64,000 nt of DNA from Okamejei kenojei. Taxonomy: Eukaryota. The notes under the pieces were generated by a model. It had not been told where the DNA came from and did no database searches. It worked only from the letters and a program-made list of their open reading frames with translations. The stretch covers positions 15,748,001 through 15,812,000 of the forward strand of contig CM069163.1 in assembly GCA_035221665.1 (NCBI GenBank). Reading direction: 5' to 3'. A program made the position numbers and the translations under genes. Below are positions 8,271 to 57,836 of this stretch, in pieces (within the stretch, counting starts at the first letter, position 1; each line of letters begins with the position of its first letter).

Positions 8271-11200
8271 GTAGAAAACAATAAAAGGATGGAAATCATT
8301 TATAATTTCAGCATGTGTTAATAGAACAGAACAGCAGAGGAACATGCCCTTCGACCCACAATGTCTTTTGAGCATGATGCTAAGTTAATTTTGCCAGCAT
8401 TTGATCCCTATCCCTCCATATCCCCGCATATCCATGTGCCTATCTAAAACCTCTAACTGCCACTAGTGTATCTGCTTCCACCACCCCTGGTATCACGTTC
8501 AGGTCTCCCACCTCGATTTGAATCACAACCTGCCTCTAGGTTGCTCTCGCCAAAGTGCTGACCTCACACCTATCCACCTTAAATTCCATTTCCCACAATT
8601 TTACCCATTCACTCAACCTATCTACAGATGACTGGAGACCAAGCAGCAGCCCTGGCTCGACTGCCACTCCCAAGAGGCCGAGCACATGGATCGGTGTGAC
8701 CTGCAGTGGCACAGAGGACATCAACAACTTTGCGTGGCCAGGCCGACCCTGCAATGTCATCAGGACAATGGGCCTTTATGGGCTTTGAAAATGGTGCCAA
8801 AACATGGCGACTCTCAGACTATTTATTTTCACTTTGTACTTAATGTTATATTGTGCTTGTGTATAGCGATAGTTTCTGAACTGTAAAAAATGTCTCTGTA
8901 CCCATGTTAATAAACTATTGGACCTCTGGCTTTCTGGGTTATGTTCACCATCAATAGTCTCTGTTCTTTAGGTGTGGACAAAAAAAAAATTCAGCAGCCA
9001 CATTTCGTTCTAGTTCTGATGAGACGTCAAATTATTGGCATATATTTGTGGTCCATGTACTGACTGACAATGGGACCCTAATCTGAAACATGGACTCAAT
9101 TTATCTTTCCAGAAATGCTGCTTGACCTCCTGCGTTTTTCCAGCAGCTTCCCTTTTTTTATTTTAAATAACCAGCAGTTTTAAAAATATTTTTTATTTCC
9201 AAGTCATTATGTTCTATGCTGTTGTCTGCCCGCGCGGGTGGGAGCAGCCATCAGATTTGCAGGCAGTGGGAAATCGTTGAACCGTATCAATCGATCATTT
9301 TATTAAATATACAGAATATTATATTTGGAATGGAATACTTTATTGTCACGTGATTAGGCACTGAAATTCCTTGCTTGAATACCCAATGTATGCAAATAGC
9401 AGCCACCTACGGCGCTGACAAAGTTACAAAGCAAAATTTGATCTTTCATGAACAATTGCAACATCCACAAATAGTGCAAGAATGCTGAAGATGTTAATCT
9501 ATGTAATACTTTCAGTTTACAATCAGAGTGCAATAATGGACTACAGCTTCAAAACAAAATCTGAAGCTAAAGGCCGACCTCCCAACTATCCCGCTTTTGG
9601 CGGGATATTCCCGCTTTTTAGGTTCCCTTCCCGCCATCCCGATTTGTAACCTAATTATCCCGCTAAATTGACATTTCCGATACCATGTATGTGTTATTAT
9701 GTATATTGCTCAATTTGACTGTGATATTACGCAATACAAAATTGAAAGGTGCGTTGTCAGCAAACGAGCAGACGATTCACATTCTTTATGCACCCATTGC
9801 ATTGATGTACGTGAGCAGTGCGTGAACCATGTGTGTATGCATAGAGTTACATGTAACTCTATGTGTGTATGACACAACACCGCGACCACCGTGGCAGATC
9901 TCTTGTGCACTGTACACGTGTACACTGTAGGGCTAGCTAGAAATCAGGGCAGTGCAGTGCAGTGAACGCGACAATTGAAAACAACGCAAGCTACTTGCAT
10001 AATGCATCAAGCACATGTGCACACCGCAAAATCAACAAAGATTTCTATAGGAGTTTATGCCGAGTTTTTGTTGCCTGCTGAATATTTATTGATTGGATTT
10101 TCATGGATCTAATTTGGGGATTTCAACGGCGCTTTGAATATCAGTTTATAGCCCATACTTTGAACTTGTATTTCGCGAAATCACCGTGGCTTTGTTACAG
10201 ATTTTCTGCTTCATTTTATTTTTAACGCACAGACTGTGGATCAGATTTTTGTGGATATGGATCGTGGATGCTATTTTGTTAGATTTCACGCCTTTTACGG
10301 GATGAATCAACACTTTGTATTGTGATAATATCAGCTGTTATCGCTACTGACACTGTTTTACTTTGTTAGAAATCTACTGACATGTGCTGTGATTGTATTT
10401 ATTTGGATTAAATCAACATGAATCCTCCGTTCATCACATCGTTCAAATCAACTTGACATGCATTACTCATTGACTCTACAACACGATCTTGCCTCAACGA
10501 CCCAAATTTAACGCGTCAGTGGCGGCGTCCGGCGGGGTTACAACACAATCCAGATCCAAACAGTACTGTCGACTGTCACTTGTGAGTACAAGTAGCTTTG
10601 CAAATGGGAAGTTAGATTCAACATTTTATAAAGATGGCTTCATCTAAAAAAGCAAAGCAGTACCAACGTTATCTACGTAGATCTGGGGAGGAGTTTCCAT
10701 GTCTTGGACCCAGCAGAGTAAGTGAATTTAAAGCACATTGCAGTATTTGTGGTGCCGATTTTGTGATTAGTCATGCAGGACGAGGTGACTGTGTGAAACA
10801 TGTGAACTCTGCTAAGCATTGTAAAGCAGTTGCAGATGTCCAAAAAATACCAAAGTTGACATCATTTTCGAGCTTCTCACAAGATTTCAGTGTCATTAAT
10901 GCTTAAGTATTATTTACAAGTTTTGTTGTAGAACATAATTTGCCTTTTGCCGTAGCTGACCACATGGGTCCTTTGCTTCGCAAGATGTTTCCCAACAATC
11001 CAGTAGCCAAAGATTTCCATTGCGGACAGACAAAGACTAAATCAATTGTCCAAACCTTAGCGAGAGACACCGAAAAAGAAATAACAGAAGCTATGATAAG
11101 TGGACCGTACAGTTTAGCTACTGATGGGAGTAGTGATATGGATGATGTTAAACTCTACCCCCTTGTTGTACGTTATTTTGATAACTCAAAGGGTGGTGTA

Positions 11201-11700
11201 TCTACTGTGTTACTTTGTATGCCCGAGTGCAGAGAGTCGACTGCTGCCCAAATTTTTCAGTTGCTGGATGAAGAGCTGACAAAGAGAAACATTTCCTGGA
11301 ATAACTGTCTTTCATTTGGAGCAGACAATGCCAATGTTATGCAGGGTCTCAAGACCGGACTAGCCTCGCATCTCCTGAAAGTAAATCCAAACATGTATAT
11401 CGTTGGATGTGCATGTCATCTATTGCACTTGGCAGCTGAGAAGGCAGAAAGTGAACTGCCCATCCATGTTGAAGAGACATTGATAGATATATATTACTAT
11501 CTCGACAAAAGTAGCAAGAGAAAGGCTGTACTGAGAGACTTTCAGTGCCTGCACAACACAGAGGTAAGAAAAATCCTCAAACATGTGAGCACAAGGTGGT
11601 TGTCACTGAAAACATGCATTGACAGCATTTTGATGTTGTGGCCAGCTTTGACGGATTTCTTCAATAGCGAATTACAGCAGGGTGGTAAGAAGAAGCCAAC

Positions 11701-11880
11701 AGCACAAAAGAGGAAGGGTAGTGGAGATCCCCCTGTCATGAAAAAATGTTTGAAAACGGGTCAGTCACAAACTACCGTGAATGCAACATCAGCACAAAAG
11801 AGGAAGGGTAGTGGAGATCCCCCTGTCATGAAAAAATGTTTGAAAACGGGTCAGTCACAAACTACCGTGAATGCAACATC
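11701..11880 (+). repeat. Perfect 2 x 90-bp in-frame tandem duplication in the transposase
   Basis: 11701-11790 equals 11791-11880 (AQKRKGSGDPPVMKKCLKTGQSQTTVNATS twice). Confidence 0.95.
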
Positions 11881-12179
11881 CAAGCCAAAATCAGCTACAG
11901 GTGGTGCCAAGAAGCCTCTGTTAACTCAGTCTGCCCACCCTAAATCATCTTGTGCAGAGAAAAGAACAGGTACATCTAGTTCTTGGCCATCTGCTCCATC
12001 AAAGACTAAATCAAATATGTTGTGTGGATCATCTTCATCTTCTTCTGCCTTTCTCAAACAGTTCAAGATACCAACTTTGAAGTCTACGACACAAAAGTCT
12101 GATAGTCAGGCATCATCATCTAAACTGAAATCATCAGTAGCTGTGGCAGGACAGATGCACAAACCATGTACCTCAACAG

Positions 12180-12738
12180 CAGAGATGCCAAGTGTCCCGG
12201 ATTCGCCGTATTTTATCCCGGCGAAATAACCTTTTTACGGTGTTCCGGCAGCCAAACATGCTGTTACGGAACACCGCCGCGCCGGGTGTTCCTCCCCGTG
12301 GTCAGTGGGGGAGGGTTGCCGGGCCCCAGTGGCCGCGCGTGCGCAGTGGGGGAGGGTTGCCGGGCCCCAGTGCGCAGTGGGGGAGGGTTTGCCGGGCCTG
12401 GCGCCATTTCGAGCCACGCCCGGCCCAGAGCCCGGGCGGCGCCGGCCCGCGCGATCAGCGGCACTTTCTTGCCGCCAACCGGCCGCTCGCGGCAGCCCCA
12501 TCACCGGGCCTCCCCCCCACCCCCACCCAGTGCGCAGGCGCAGACCCGCCGGCAACCTTGCCAAGTGCGCATGTGCCGCACCCGCCCGCCGGCAGCCCGC
12601 TGATCTGCACCAGTGCGCAGGCGCAGACCCGCCGGCAACAACCCCAGGTGAGTACGGAGAGAAATGCATTTAACCCCATTTGTTACGGACAAATGGGTTA
12701 AATGTTACTGTGAACTAAATTTAGGGTTGGCATCTCTG
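12180..12738. mobile_element. Non-autonomous hAT-like MITE (559 bp) with 6-bp TSD, nested in the transposase
   Basis: Perfect 12-bp TIRs CAGAGATGCCAA / TTGGCATCTCTG; CAACAG at 12174-12179 and 12739-12744; CpG-rich internal tandem repeats. Confidence 0.9.
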
Positions 12739-14509
12739 CAACAGTATCACAGAAGAGTCTAACAAAAAAATCTGAGACAGATCTTACATCCAAAACAGCA
12801 CAAAAGCCATTGAGTGGATCATCCTCTTTTTCTGCATGTAACTCTTCTAAGAAAGCTACTTCAAAACCTACCCAACAGAAGACTGCTTCAGCATGTTCAG
12901 TTGCTGGGAAATCAAGACTTGAAAGAGTATGTCTGGCTCTGAATGACAAAACAACCAAACTGTACTGCTTATTTCTAAGTACTGTTCTCCCAGTATTTGA
13001 TGAAGCAAATCTTCTTCTGCAGAGAGATGAGCCTTGTATACATGTTCTTCACCAGACACTGATGTCCACTCTAAGGAAACTCATGTCTTATCTAGTTAAG
13101 CCTATGTCAATCAAGCAGCACTCTTTGCTTCAAGTACCATATGCAAATAAGGATCACCAAAGAACTGATGATGAACTATTCATTGGTAATTCTGCCAGAG
13201 AATTTCTCAGTGACCATCAAGACATAGACAGGGTCATGTTCTTCAGCAAAGTGAGGGCCTTCTACAAGCGTGCATTAGATTACATGCTAGCCAAGTTTCC
13301 TCTATCTGATGACCTCCTAAGGCATGCTGAGGTTGCTGACATTAAAAAGAGAGAAGCAATGACATTCTCATCTGTGAAGTATTTTGCACAGAGAATGCAG
13401 TGCCTTGGCTTCAGCAAAGCTGAAAAGTTGGATGAACTAGAGAAAGAGTTCATCTCTTTCCAGTTAGAGGAATTCCCAGAGGAAATCTCAACTTGCCAAA
13501 GAGTAGACAAGCAGTGGCATCTCATTGGAAACATGAAGGATCCATCCCAGCATGAGAAATATCCTCATCTCTCAACACTCATGAAGTCAGTGCTTGTTAT
13601 CTTTCACAGCAATGCTGAGTGTGAGCGAATTTTCAGCTTTGTCACAAAAACTAAGACTGAAATGAGATCCAGCATGAAAACAAACACTCTAAGTGACTTG
13701 ATTGTACAGAAGCAGTCAATGATCTCAAAAAAATCTGTGTGCTATGAACAGAAGTTTTCAAATGCACTTTTGCAAAAGTGCAAAAGTGGACTATATCAGA
13801 GTTTACAGCAAACTTAAATGATGAGCTGCATGATGAGCTGCATGTGTATACATACGTACATGAAGGTGAGTCTAGTGCCAAGTTTATCAAAGTTTAACAA
13901 AGAATTATAAATGTTTCAGCATACATGTACCTTTTTCACATTTTGGCATTTAAAATACTTCTTCACAATTTAGAATTTGTGACATGGGACCCCGAATAGG
14001 GCGCAGCGACATATTATGAATTTTCATTAAAAATATGAATTTTGAGGGGAAATATTATGAATTTTGACAATCAAATGTTGGGAGGTCTGTAAAGGATGGA
14101 GCAGCCACAAAATAATCCATGTGCAATTCGGAATCTGTTTAATTCCATAATTGCAATTTGACTGAATTTAAAGCATTGCATTGATTAACCTTTTCAGCAA
14201 TCTTCTGACTATCCATGGACTACAATTTTTCACACAAGATCAAATGTAGGATTCTGTGTATTTAATAACCTGATCGATTGATCTGGTACAGCGGGTTCCT
14301 TCCCAGTACTGGCAGAGCAGACATGGTGCAGGGTGCGGTTTCGTTTCAATCCAATTGCAAAAATAACCAGATCATTGCTCTCCTTTGGAATAGGATTATA
14401 ACTCCTCTTCTGACGACAAAAAAATGACACTAAACGGGACAAGTTGCAGGGCTGTCGCTAGTTCACGATGCCCTGTCATTGGCTCTAATGCACCCAATGC
14501 AACATCAAA

Positions 14510-15299: not shown

Positions 15300-15799
15300 T
15301 AGGGTTGCCAACTTTCTCAATCTCAAATTAGGGACAAACGGTCAAAATACGGGACAAATTCCCCACGGCAATTCGTTGACCGACTCGGCCGTGGCTGGGT
15401 GAATGATAAGTTGGCCCGGGTGCTGGACAGCACACAAAGCCCAGCCGGCGCGCCAGCTGAGGAGATTTGTCCCGCGTGATGTCGCGCGCAAACTCCGTCA
15501 CCCCATCCAACCCATGAACCGATGATCGGCGATGAGAAAGAGGGGTGTTGGTGTCCACGGTAAGCTAAGGTCCGAAGGTCGAACAGATGGGGCAACGGGC
15601 GAAGCGTTGCTGCTGCACTCCATGGGCTGCACTACGTCAGGACAGGTGAGGCGGGGCTGGACGCAGCGCTCCGACCCGACAGTCCCTTCGACCCGAGTAG
15701 TAGCAGTCAAATACGGGACAAGGGTGGTCCCGTATGGGACAAACCAATTTAGCCCAATATACCGGATGTCTCGCTAATAAGGGACAGTTGGCAACCCCA
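15300..15799. mobile_element. hAT (Blackjack-like termini) MITE, 500 bp, 8-bp TSD
   Basis: TIRs TAGGGTTGCCAACT / AGTTGGCAACCCCA; GCAGCCAC at 15292-15299 and 15800-15807; subterminal GGGAC repeats. Confidence 0.88.
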
Positions 15800-15995: not shown

Positions 15996-16246
15996 CGCGC
16001 AGGCGCAGTGTGTGGGCGACGGGTGTGCCGGGTGGTGCTGAGCGCGCAGGCGCAGTGTTTGTGTGGGCGACGGGTTTGCCGGGTGGTGCCAAGTGCGCAG
16101 GCGCAGTGTGTGGGCGACGGGTGTGCCGGGTGATGGTGAGTGCGCAGGCGCAGTGTGAGGGCGACGGTTGTGCCGGGTGGCGCTGGGCGCGCAGGCGCAG
16201 TGTGTGGGCGACGGTTGTGCCGGGTGGTGCTGGGCGCGCAGGCGCG
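15996..16246 (+). repeat. 47-bp minisatellite (5 units plus a partial), each with an NRF1-like motif
   Basis: YGCGCAGGCGCR at 15996, 16043, 16094, 16141, 16188 and 16235. Confidence 0.88.
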
Positions 16247-42842: not shown

Positions 42843-43302
42843 CATACCTGCCAACCATTCCGATTTGGGCGGAATTCTTCCGATTTTTCCATCCCAATTC
42901 CGAATTCCGATTTTTTGTCTCAATATTCCGAGAAAAAAAATCGGAAAAAAAAACCACACAGAAACTTTCTATGTGTTTTTTTTTTCCGATTTTTTTTCTC
43001 GGAATATTGAGACAAAAAAATCGGAATTGGGATGGAAAAATCCGAAAACGTCGCCTATCTCCTTCGCTCCTTAGATGCTGCTGCACCCGCTGAGTTTCTC
43101 CAGCATTTTGTGTAACCCCCCTGAGGTCACTTTCCCGCCCTCACTGACGTCACGTACCCCGCCCCTTACTGACGTCACTTGCCCCGCCCCTTACTGACGT
43201 CACCTGCCCCGCCCCTTACTGACGTCACGTGCCCCGCCCTCACTGACGTCAGACTAATAGGATTCCGATTTTTCAATCTCACAAGTTGGCAGGTAATTAG
43301 TG
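42843..43302. mobile_element. Non-autonomous hAT-like MITE, probable 6-bp TSD
   Basis: TIRs CATACCTGCCAAC / GTTGGCAGGTA[attag]TG; AACTAC at 42837-42842 and 43303-43308; terminal architecture parallels the 9574-14089 element. Confidence 0.75.
43122..43251. repeat. 25-bp tandem array of CRE palindromes and GC boxes
   Basis: TGACGTCA at 43145, 43170, 43195, 43220 and 43244, TGAGGTCA at 43122, separated by CCCGCCC. Confidence 0.88.
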
Positions 43303-56410: not shown

Positions 56411-56826
56411 TAACCAGCCCTAGTGCCTAACGTCTCATAAGCAATCCACTGAGGGATGTTAGTGGTCCAGATTAAGGGTCCCGAGCCAAAACTGTCCGTT
56501 CAGATTTCTAGCGCCTGCAACTTTTATTTTCCACTTAATTAATATTATTCTTTCCCATTTTTCTCACAACAAATTTACTTCTCTTTTCTTTTCCTTAAAT
56601 TCCATCCATGACATCATAAATGTTTTATGCCTGAAATGCAGAAGTATCTGAATCAATGAATGAATATTCTATGTTAACATTGTCTAAATAAGCTGATCAC
56701 GAGCCTCGCTGCCTAAATTTCTTCTCCAGCAGCCTAAGTTCGGAGTTTATTATTGAGAAGTAATGCTAAAATTGAGCAGATAGCAAAATTATCCATTGTG
56801 CACATTACTTTCCCATTCCTTTCCAG

Positions 56827-57166
56827 GCCTTCCAAAAATTTGTTAACATCCCAAGACGGATTCTCAACCAAAGCCACTGAACGTAGCTCCGGCATTATCT
56901 CTTCTGCACTCATCCAACCTATGGGCCAGCCTGGCAATGCCCTCTTGTCCCCCATCTCTTTGACAACTGTACTAGCCCCGGTACTAGCCCCGGTGCCAGG
57001 TCCACTACATATGACGGAAGGCAAAGACCTGAGTAAAGCTCAGGCAGACAAATGCAGAGAGTCGTCTGAGAGCGACCTTGACGGGCCGATCGCCGATCAG
57101 CTGCTCTCCTTTGTACTGGATGACCCTGACTTTGAGAGTGACGATTCTGGGAAAAGACCAAAACTT
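56827..57166 (+). CDS. RABL6: RABL6 coding exon 12
   Basis: ttccag acceptor, CTT|gtaagt donor, 340 nt; ends with conserved SSESDLDGPIADQLLSFVLDDPDFESDDS; contains a 12-bp duplication (VLAP twice, 56969-56992). Confidence 0.9.
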
Positions 57167-57836
57167 GTAAGTTTCTGGACTCTAAGTTTTCATCTCCTGA
57201 ACATGAAAACATCTAAGTTTTCGTGTTCTTTGATTTTGGAGTGGTTGGGGGAGGGAATGGTGCAATTGAATAAAATGACCAATTTCAGACAGAATCAGCA
57301 GTACATTTCCAAAGCGAGCTTGAGTGGGAAAACTACTTGAGCTTTGTATAGGGAATGGTGTTTCCTGATCATTCCTGTGATGCTGCCTGCTCATTGATGA
57401 CCAGTGTACAGACTTGCTGAGTTCCAGTGCACAGCATTGCAGTCCAAGTGTGTAACTGAGGGGGAGGGGCCCAGGGTGTCAAGGGAGACATAATTGGAGA
57501 AGGAGAACTCGCCTATTCTTTCCAAAGTAAAACTGGGATCTTGTCAGATTTTCCATCCTCTCCCCCACTGAGAGGCCATGCCATTCCATTTGAATGATGC
57601 CTGCGATTGTGCCATACCTAGTCTGTACAACACTCGTGTCTTGTCCCGGGTTTCGGCTGAAGTCTGTGGGATGGGAATATGATCCACAGATTCTGACTGA
57701 AGATGAGAGCCCTAGGTGACACTACACTCTGGACCAGGGCCTGGTTGCAACCTCCCTGGATCACCTGATTTTAATTTTTCTGAATGTGCTCTCCTTTTCC
57801 TTTGTGTTGCCCTGACTCTTCACCCATTTTCGGCAG

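Follow-up and report, generated by a model that had tools for sequence, protein, structure and literature searches.

The window analysed here, i.e. the whole 64,000-nucleotide stretch of contig CM069163.1 (positions 15,748,001 to 15,812,000) of the skate Okamejei kenojei, harbours a DNA transposon 2.3 kb upstream of RABL6. The element spans 4,516 bp (9574-14089), or 3,951 bp without a miniature inverted-repeat transposable element (MITE) nested in it, and is very probably an inactivated member of a young, autonomous hAT family in the skate that generates target-site duplications (TSDs) of 6 bp (hAT6-type). Judged from the motifs and the PF05699 match of its transposase, its short terminal inverted repeats (TIRs) and the Hermes fold predicted for a relative, the element is a member of the hAT superfamily. 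It is built up as follows:

9568-9573, plus strand: left TSD, TAAAGG, 6 bp
9574-9586, plus strand: left TIR, 13 bp, with C for A at position 2
9588-9606, plus strand: left subterminal palindrome with 7-bp arms and a 5-bp spacer, more TCCCG repeats behind it
10634-12179, plus strand: 5′ part of the transposase open reading frame (ORF), amino acids 1-515
11666-12915, plus strand: S/T/K-rich low-complexity insert of the transposase, ~228 amino acids (residues 345-573, MITE excluded)
11697-11876: 90-nucleotide in-frame tandem duplication inside the low-complexity insert
12174-12179, plus strand: left TSD of the nested MITE, CAACAG, 6 bp
12180-12738, no strand assigned: nested MITE, 559 bp, perfect 12-bp TIR, 66% GC, very high-copy family
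12739-12744, plus strand: right TSD of the nested MITE, 6 bp
12745-13817, plus strand: 3′ part of the transposase ORF, amino acids 516-872
14008-14067, plus strand: right subterminal repeats, three TATGAATTTT units, which differ from the left-end motif
14077-14089, minus strand: right TIR, 13 bp
14090-14095, plus strand: right TSD, TAAAGG

The two TIRs are identical at 12 of 13 bases with position 2 as sole mismatch, and the TAAAGG duplication is exact only at a length of 6 when lengths from 2 to 12 are tried at fixed ends; both had been described correctly in a first-pass annotation of this DNA. With the ends fixed, a TIR of this kind would arise by chance at ~9e-7 and the TSD at ~3e-4. A window-wide motif scan (73 left and 87 right candidates) yielded three pairs that passed the TIR test, and all three carry an exact TSD, of 6, 6 and 8 bp. 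The ends are backed independently, as the left-end homology to the related loci L001 and L002 (~81% identity, region of 9588-9606) is in register with the TIRs of these loci and as contigs of the sequencing runs X8 and X13 end their match at 14089. The termini of most relatives start with CA, and the element shows the size and end structure of hAT transposons (TIRs of 10-25 bp, subterminal repeats, 2.5-5 kb). By analogy with Hermes, the palindrome at 9588-9606 and the TCCCG repeats are likely to be binding sites of the BED finger. In several relatives (L008, L025, L038) the subterminal motif is identical at both ends, unlike in the skate element.

The insertion that disrupts the ORF is a 559-bp non-autonomous TIR element with an exact 6-bp TSD of its own. 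The length of this duplication can be read in two further ways: the transposase frame is restored on deleting 0, 6 or 9 duplicated bases, not 2, 4, 5, 7 or 8, and contigs of X2 and X8 contain the empty-site joint 12173 to 12739, which skips 565 bases with a 6-letter overlap. Another joint, 9707 to 12179, was not relied on, its short side having only 26 letters. The TIR of the nested MITE equals that of L001 and L066 and is unlike that of the outer element, which places the MITE in a sister family of the same clade.

To see how far the 6-bp spacing extends, we turn to the 80 related loci retained from 265 confirmed metagenome matches. A TIR pair around the ORF is present in 33 of them, the other 47 lying mostly on short contigs, and a scan without motif prior recovers the same pairs. 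At these two-ended loci there are 27 exact 6-bp TSDs, two of 6 bp with one mismatch and one of 7 bp, three loci have none, and 8 bp does not occur; among the 27, one lies in an AT repeat, and L048 and L049 are a single insertion seen twice. The relatives share CA[GT]A.....CAA ends and are not strict in their choice of target, their sites showing a weak central A-T bias (25 sites; when strands are pooled, 28 of 50 have A at position 3). As the 6-bp relatives measure 2.3-2.7 kb, leaving no room for a long insert, the disordered insert of the skate transposase does not set the spacing and is ruled out as cause of the 6-bp stagger. A control MITE at 15300-15799, whose similar TIR keeps this register and likewise terminates in CCAAC, nevertheless carries an 8-bp TSD. 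The 6-bp stagger is evident from the insertion sites compared and appears to belong to the catalytic core of the clade rather than to this copy or its insert.

Several points weigh against this interpretation. The two-ended loci come, with two exceptions (31/33), from one assembly and are all 30-37% identical to the skate element, the nearest relatives are without TSD data, no TSD is observed for another copy of the skate family itself, and L014 (221-3453) has a perfect 14-bp TIR together with an exact 7-bp TSD. L014 adjoins a 6-bp family in the tree and may represent either an isolated case or another shift in spacing. A full-length relative, L048:5379-9261, is nested just inside the left end of another element whose TIR is identical, and both have 6-bp TSDs of their own.

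An ordinary 8-bp hAT element could also give the appearance of a 6-bp duplication if its ends were misplaced or if two of the TSD bases had decayed, and 8 bp being usual for hATs, the mismatch in the left TIR and the observation of just a single insertion of this family would all suit such an origin. However, moving the ends by 1-3 bases never produces an 8-bp duplication, none of the 33 relatives has 8 bp, the 6 bp of the nested MITE are pinned by reading frame and empty site, and the same scan does detect 8 bp at the control MITE. We regard this alternative as largely refuted and highly improbable. The earlier claim of a hAT element with a true 6-bp TSD, being backed by the hAT transposase, the exact duplication and the fit to hAT6, has thus stood.

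Once the nested MITE and one copy of its 6-bp duplication are removed, the two ORF parts form one 872-residue frame in which codon 91 is the only stop, in agreement with the reconstruction of ~872 amino acids proposed at first pass. The catalytic residues D164 (11123), D231 (11324) and E809 (13623) are present, as are the CxxH motif (residues 259-262; 11408-11419) and the RW motif (residues 321-322; 11594-11599), all of which had been predicted. The BED finger that was predicted along with them is borne out in part: C36, C39, H56 and H62 fall in conserved columns and form a pattern that we take to be a BED-type zinc finger, but Pfam has no zf-BED match for it and the finger remains putative. 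The 3′ part matches PF05699 (Dimer_Tnp_hAT) with an E value of 8.9e-8 and 32.3 bits vs a cut-off of 21.4.

When a profile of 30 relatives is compared with the PDB, Hermes is the sole match (four sequences, E 2e-7). The predicted model of P0004, the closest named relative (mean predicted local distance difference test score 81.5), aligns with Hermes over 408 residues with a Z score of 23.6 and a root-mean-square deviation of 3.6, the next protein reaching a Z score of 11.7. The transposase is hence predicted to have the Hermes fold, the model being that of the relative P0004 and not of the skate protein itself. The low-complexity insert starts ~25 residues past RW, within the helical insertion domain, and is the longest among the 82 sequences compared; the same site holds 42-218 residues in 59 of 81 full-length homologues and 4-17 in the other 22, and the equivalent insert of P0004 (366-525) is disordered in the model. 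An intron or debris is ruled out as explanation for this stretch, given that it is open in frame and that most homologues have residues at the same place.

The element fits the hAT6 group by its 6-bp TSD, clade membership being read from TSD length, and would be a new member of a group that is itself already known. Groups of hATs with 5-bp and 6-bp TSDs are termed hAT5 and hAT6 and are placed in the lineage that holds Blackjack in the part of PMC12730594 that deals with them, where the designation hAT6 is credited to Kapitonov and Jurka 2007 (Repbase Reports 7:1192). Further mentions include the class DNA/hAT-hAT6 in a preprint on EDTA v2, a passage on hAT6 in Malawi cichlid genomes (PMC8497601) and hAT6-1_NVp in the tree data set of PMC3942097, which gives the 8-bp TSD as norm. 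In the literature searched, with subscription papers and Repbase Reports outside it, the 6-bp group appears in passing mentions only and no functional test is described. Like hAT6 elements, the skate element combines a hAT transposase, a 6-bp TSD and an animal host; the same literature yielded no description of a skate host, a disordered insert of 228 amino acids or a nested 6-bp MITE for hAT6. The first-pass view that hAT6 is found mainly in aquatic invertebrates is too narrow, as the best named matches are from teleosts, others come from ticks, a spider and a stick insect, and hAT6 is also known from cichlids.

Canonical hATs (Ac, Buster, Tip) differ from the skate element in their 8-bp TSD, the skate element having 6 bp only. 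Other hAT groups depart from 8 bp as well, i.e. hAT5 and hAT7, but their TSDs are 5 bp and 7 bp long, and hAT7, a fungal group, clusters with Ac and Tam3. Hermes (PDB 4D1Q, 6DWW, 8EDG) resembles the skate element in the fold predicted from P0004, in the aligned RW, second Asp and catalytic Glu, and in having short imperfect TIRs, left-end palindromic repeats and dissimilar ends. It differs by its 8-bp TSD, the nTnnnnAn target preference, 17-bp TIRs and a length of 612 amino acids, as given in the sections of PMC10368747 on these features, whereas the clade of the skate element has a 6-bp TSD, the weak central A-T bias and 17-18% identity to Hermes. Tol2 and Tgf2 are likewise autonomous hATs of fish, Tgf2 being 4.7 kb long with an N-terminal zinc finger, but they make 8-bp TSDs and have proven activity (PMC4890040, in part), whereas any activity of the skate family is putative. 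The closest named protein, P0004 (XP_063743299.1, LOC134866984 of Eleginops maclovinus), shares 51% core identity, a long low-complexity insert and multi-copy status with the skate transposase; the sequence of its insert is unrelated, and it is annotated as uncharacterized. In the P0004 cluster, 8 of 11 members have 731-835 amino acids, which makes the Eleginops maclovinus family a candidate for an active one.

In Hermes, BED domains bind the left-end palindrome and a dimer pairs the TIRs, and strand transfer is staggered such that TSD length reflects the distance between the active sites across the target, according to the mechanistic part of PMC10368747. Modelled on Hermes, the BED finger of the skate transposase would bind the left-end palindromic repeats (9588-9606), a DDE dimer would pair both 13-bp TIRs and excise the element, and both 3′ ends would be joined to the target with a stagger that repair converts to the TSD. 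With a stagger of 6 bp, the active sites may lie closer together than in Hermes, or the target may be bent otherwise. After landing upstream of RABL6 the copy would then have been hit by the MITE of the sister family, by the stop and by at least two damaging missense changes, and the family majority, free of these four lesions, is the probable source of enzyme for hundreds of MITEs with a right end like its own.

The lesions within the ORF, apart from the MITE, are the following:

10682-10684, plus strand: missense codon, Ser17; Tyr in 68 of 81 homologues and in both read sets
10904-10906, plus strand: nonsense codon, residue 91; Glu in 78 of 81 homologues, majority letter G at 10904
11624-11626, plus strand: missense codon, Ser331; Arg in 81 of 81 homologues and in both read sets

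The Glu that had been expected at the nonsense codon is therefore what the homologues have. The same annotation held that one nonsense codon and one insertion are all that disrupts the ORF and that two repairs would give a testable transposase; neither statement survives, since Ser17 and Ser331 also depart from the homologues and from both read sets. With at least four ORF lesions (stop, MITE, Ser331, Ser17), this copy is, as read from its sequence, dead.

The state of the family can be approached from the runs, four of the 18 listed ones having been compared with the window and X11 (0.65 of the sequence words) and 13 others left out; X15 contributed 2 reads only. In X2 the flank and junction contigs have depths of 25.1, 30.2 and 21.6 and the ORF contigs of 781 and 831, a ratio of 26-38 for which contig depth is a rough copy-number guide only, and the family thus has about 30 near-identical copies. 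The majority contigs of X2 are without the MITE and differ from the window by 8 substitutions and one 5-base gap in ~3.5 kb (0.23%), and 6 of these 8 substitutions are common to X2 and X8. The majority letters are G at 10904 (Glu91), A at 10683 (Tyr17) and G at 11626 (Arg331), i.e. the majority contigs are free of the stop, the MITE, Ser17 and Ser331 in both runs that cover the ORF (X2 and X8). On this reading of the contigs the lesion-free form is the common one in the species, and most sister copies appear to carry an unbroken ORF. Repair is then unnecessary, as the majority form has neither stop nor MITE. The listed runs include no RNA run, and X8 is probably DNA.

Some observations limit this picture of the family. 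A majority contig is no proof of any single intact copy, the pieces not spanning the element; the lesions specific to this copy are below a 5% listing share, so that assembly error is possible; conserved columns, R132 and G204 among them, are off consensus in the majority form; and this copy departs from consensus at 11 of 114 conserved columns vs a median of 5. The whole family may be dead already, either by inactivating substitutions in the majority sequence or because no copy is intact, and we give this possibility just short of an even chance. In its favour, the stretch 10497-11744 has Gln in place of R132 (98% conserved), Ala in place of G204 (99%) and another five departures, all family-wide as they are not among the 3 differing letters of the X2 contig, and X2 and X8 differ from each other at several sites. 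Against it, ~30 near-identical full-length copies need a working enzyme at the time of spread, every catalytic motif is retained, and 10 of 81 homologues are as far off consensus as this copy. Departures in the C-terminal part were dropped as signs of decay, since P0282, a related fragment, carries them too.

The right end of the element occurs at a depth of 18,095 in X2, ~720x the flank. In X2, X8 and X13 a hybrid MITE fuses 12413-12652 to 13860/13863-14089, and its joints 12652 to 13860 or 13863 have depths of 6,446 and 5,050 (~460x the flank in X2). The body of the nested family joined to the right end of the outer element suggests cross-mobilisation, i.e. that sister 6-bp hAT families may mobilise each other's MITEs.

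As to the origin of the family, we see about an even chance of a recent horizontal transfer from another aquatic animal into the skate lineage that was followed by a burst. The ~30 copies lie within 0.2-0.4% of each other's majority, as would be expected of a burst after transfer. The named relatives that match the N-terminal core come from teleosts (52-54%), echinoderms, molluscs, ticks, spiders and insects (best 120 of 195 matches), and no named cartilaginous-fish protein is among these best 120 of 195, the collection including skate and ray proteomes; this absence speaks for transfer, but is weakened by the fact that only a quarter of the proteins are named and that annotations usually mask transposons. 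The nearest neighbours in the tree are teleost (Eleginops) and echinoderm (Holothuria) proteins with weak local support, the node of the element itself having a support of 0.43 in a tree of 76 chosen rows (53 proteins including this one and at most 23 of the 80 loci) from which the insert was removed and which has no outgroup. Moreover, of 12 runs that hold at least half of the sequence words, 10 have one and the same organism label and two are without label. However, a donor is not found among the relatives: core identity to named ones is at most ~51%, and the best relatives in the HMMER search have 57-62%, none above 62% among the best 150. The P0282 fragment, obtained in the C-terminal search and 86% identical over 270 amino acids on a 30-kb ENA contig, would fit the donor side, but could come from another ray. 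P0282 is predicted to be fused to an apparent piece of retroelement protease, an assignment that we make by motif.

Vertical descent, i.e. an old elasmobranch lineage of the clade with a renewed burst in this species, we rate somewhat below transfer and short of even. The same genome holds other families of 6-bp type (the nested MITE and a third element at 42843), so that the clade seems well settled there, and the 86% identity of P0282 would suit a relative in another ray. With the mutation rate given for the epaulette shark in the relevant part of PMC10587355 (7e-10 per generation, interval 1.4-14.1e-10), a divergence of 0.23% corresponds to ~3 million generations if this borrowed rate applies and the majority is taken as ancestor. 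A slow rate of this kind is compatible with vertical descent, and 'young' need not mean recent in years; the youth of the element claimed at first pass thus holds for its low divergence (8 substitutions in ~3.5 kb), not necessarily for time. What argues against vertical descent is that no named elasmobranch relative is among the matches listed in the N-terminal and C-terminal searches and that no second organism label occurs among the runs with at least half of the words.

Further candidates for transfer were followed up. There is no relative among 67 pattern matches on viral contigs. In prokaryote genomes, one of 50 matches is a relative, L081 (6001-7984), whose ORF is disrupted and which lacks a TIR pair; transfer to an archaeon was rejected, as the 778-kb contig, assigned to an archaeal metagenome-assembled genome, is gene-poor and eukaryote-like and probably misbinned. 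Run X13, which has another organism label, yields 7 matching contigs, none of them on the ORF, and contains the hybrid MITE at ~99% identity and a depth of 14; it was not used as evidence of transfer, as other high-copy repeats of the stretch are found in it at depths of 2-7 and contamination is possible.

Active hATs are rare in vertebrates, as stated in a portion of PMC4890040, and the stop-free skate family of ~30 copies is thus a fair candidate for a new one. The lead lies with the ~30 stop-free sisters and the 86% relative P0282 rather than with this ordinary dead copy, and relatives with long ORFs are already in public databases. The most far-reaching version, a still-active 6-bp family, horizontally acquired with P0282 on the donor side, whose ~30 stop-free copies mobilise hundreds of MITEs including the hybrid, appears unlikely to us. 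If true, it would provide a ready-made, naturally occurring enzyme of a cartilaginous fish with which to learn what decides between 6-bp and 8-bp cut spacing in the Hermes fold.

The surroundings of the element comprise the following:

16388 (start codon) and an exon within 56738-57337, plus strand: RABL6 gene
15300-15799: 500-bp hAT-type MITE, TIR starting with TAGGG, exact 8-bp TSD
42843-43295: third CA-type non-autonomous element

The downstream exon matches RABL6 of Rhinoraja longicauda at 87%, compared with 64% for Pristis and 58% for Mobula, and marks the host as a skate. The element itself inserted into the middle of an older palindromic repeat, the arms of which (9269-9540 and 14144-14299) are 74-80% alike. 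The MITE at 15300-15799 lies ~600 bp upstream of the RABL6 start and 1.2 kb from the element. The element at 42843-43295 resembles the termini of L073, L002 and L072 at its left end (83-87%); on the right it ends irregularly, next to 17 bases that nearly repeat the left junction, and its TSD is therefore not clean. Finally, a 12-base GC-rich motif, presumably NRF1-like, is found at 12531 and 12614 in the nested MITE and at 16094 and 16141 in repeats of the RABL6 promoter, and at no other site of the window.

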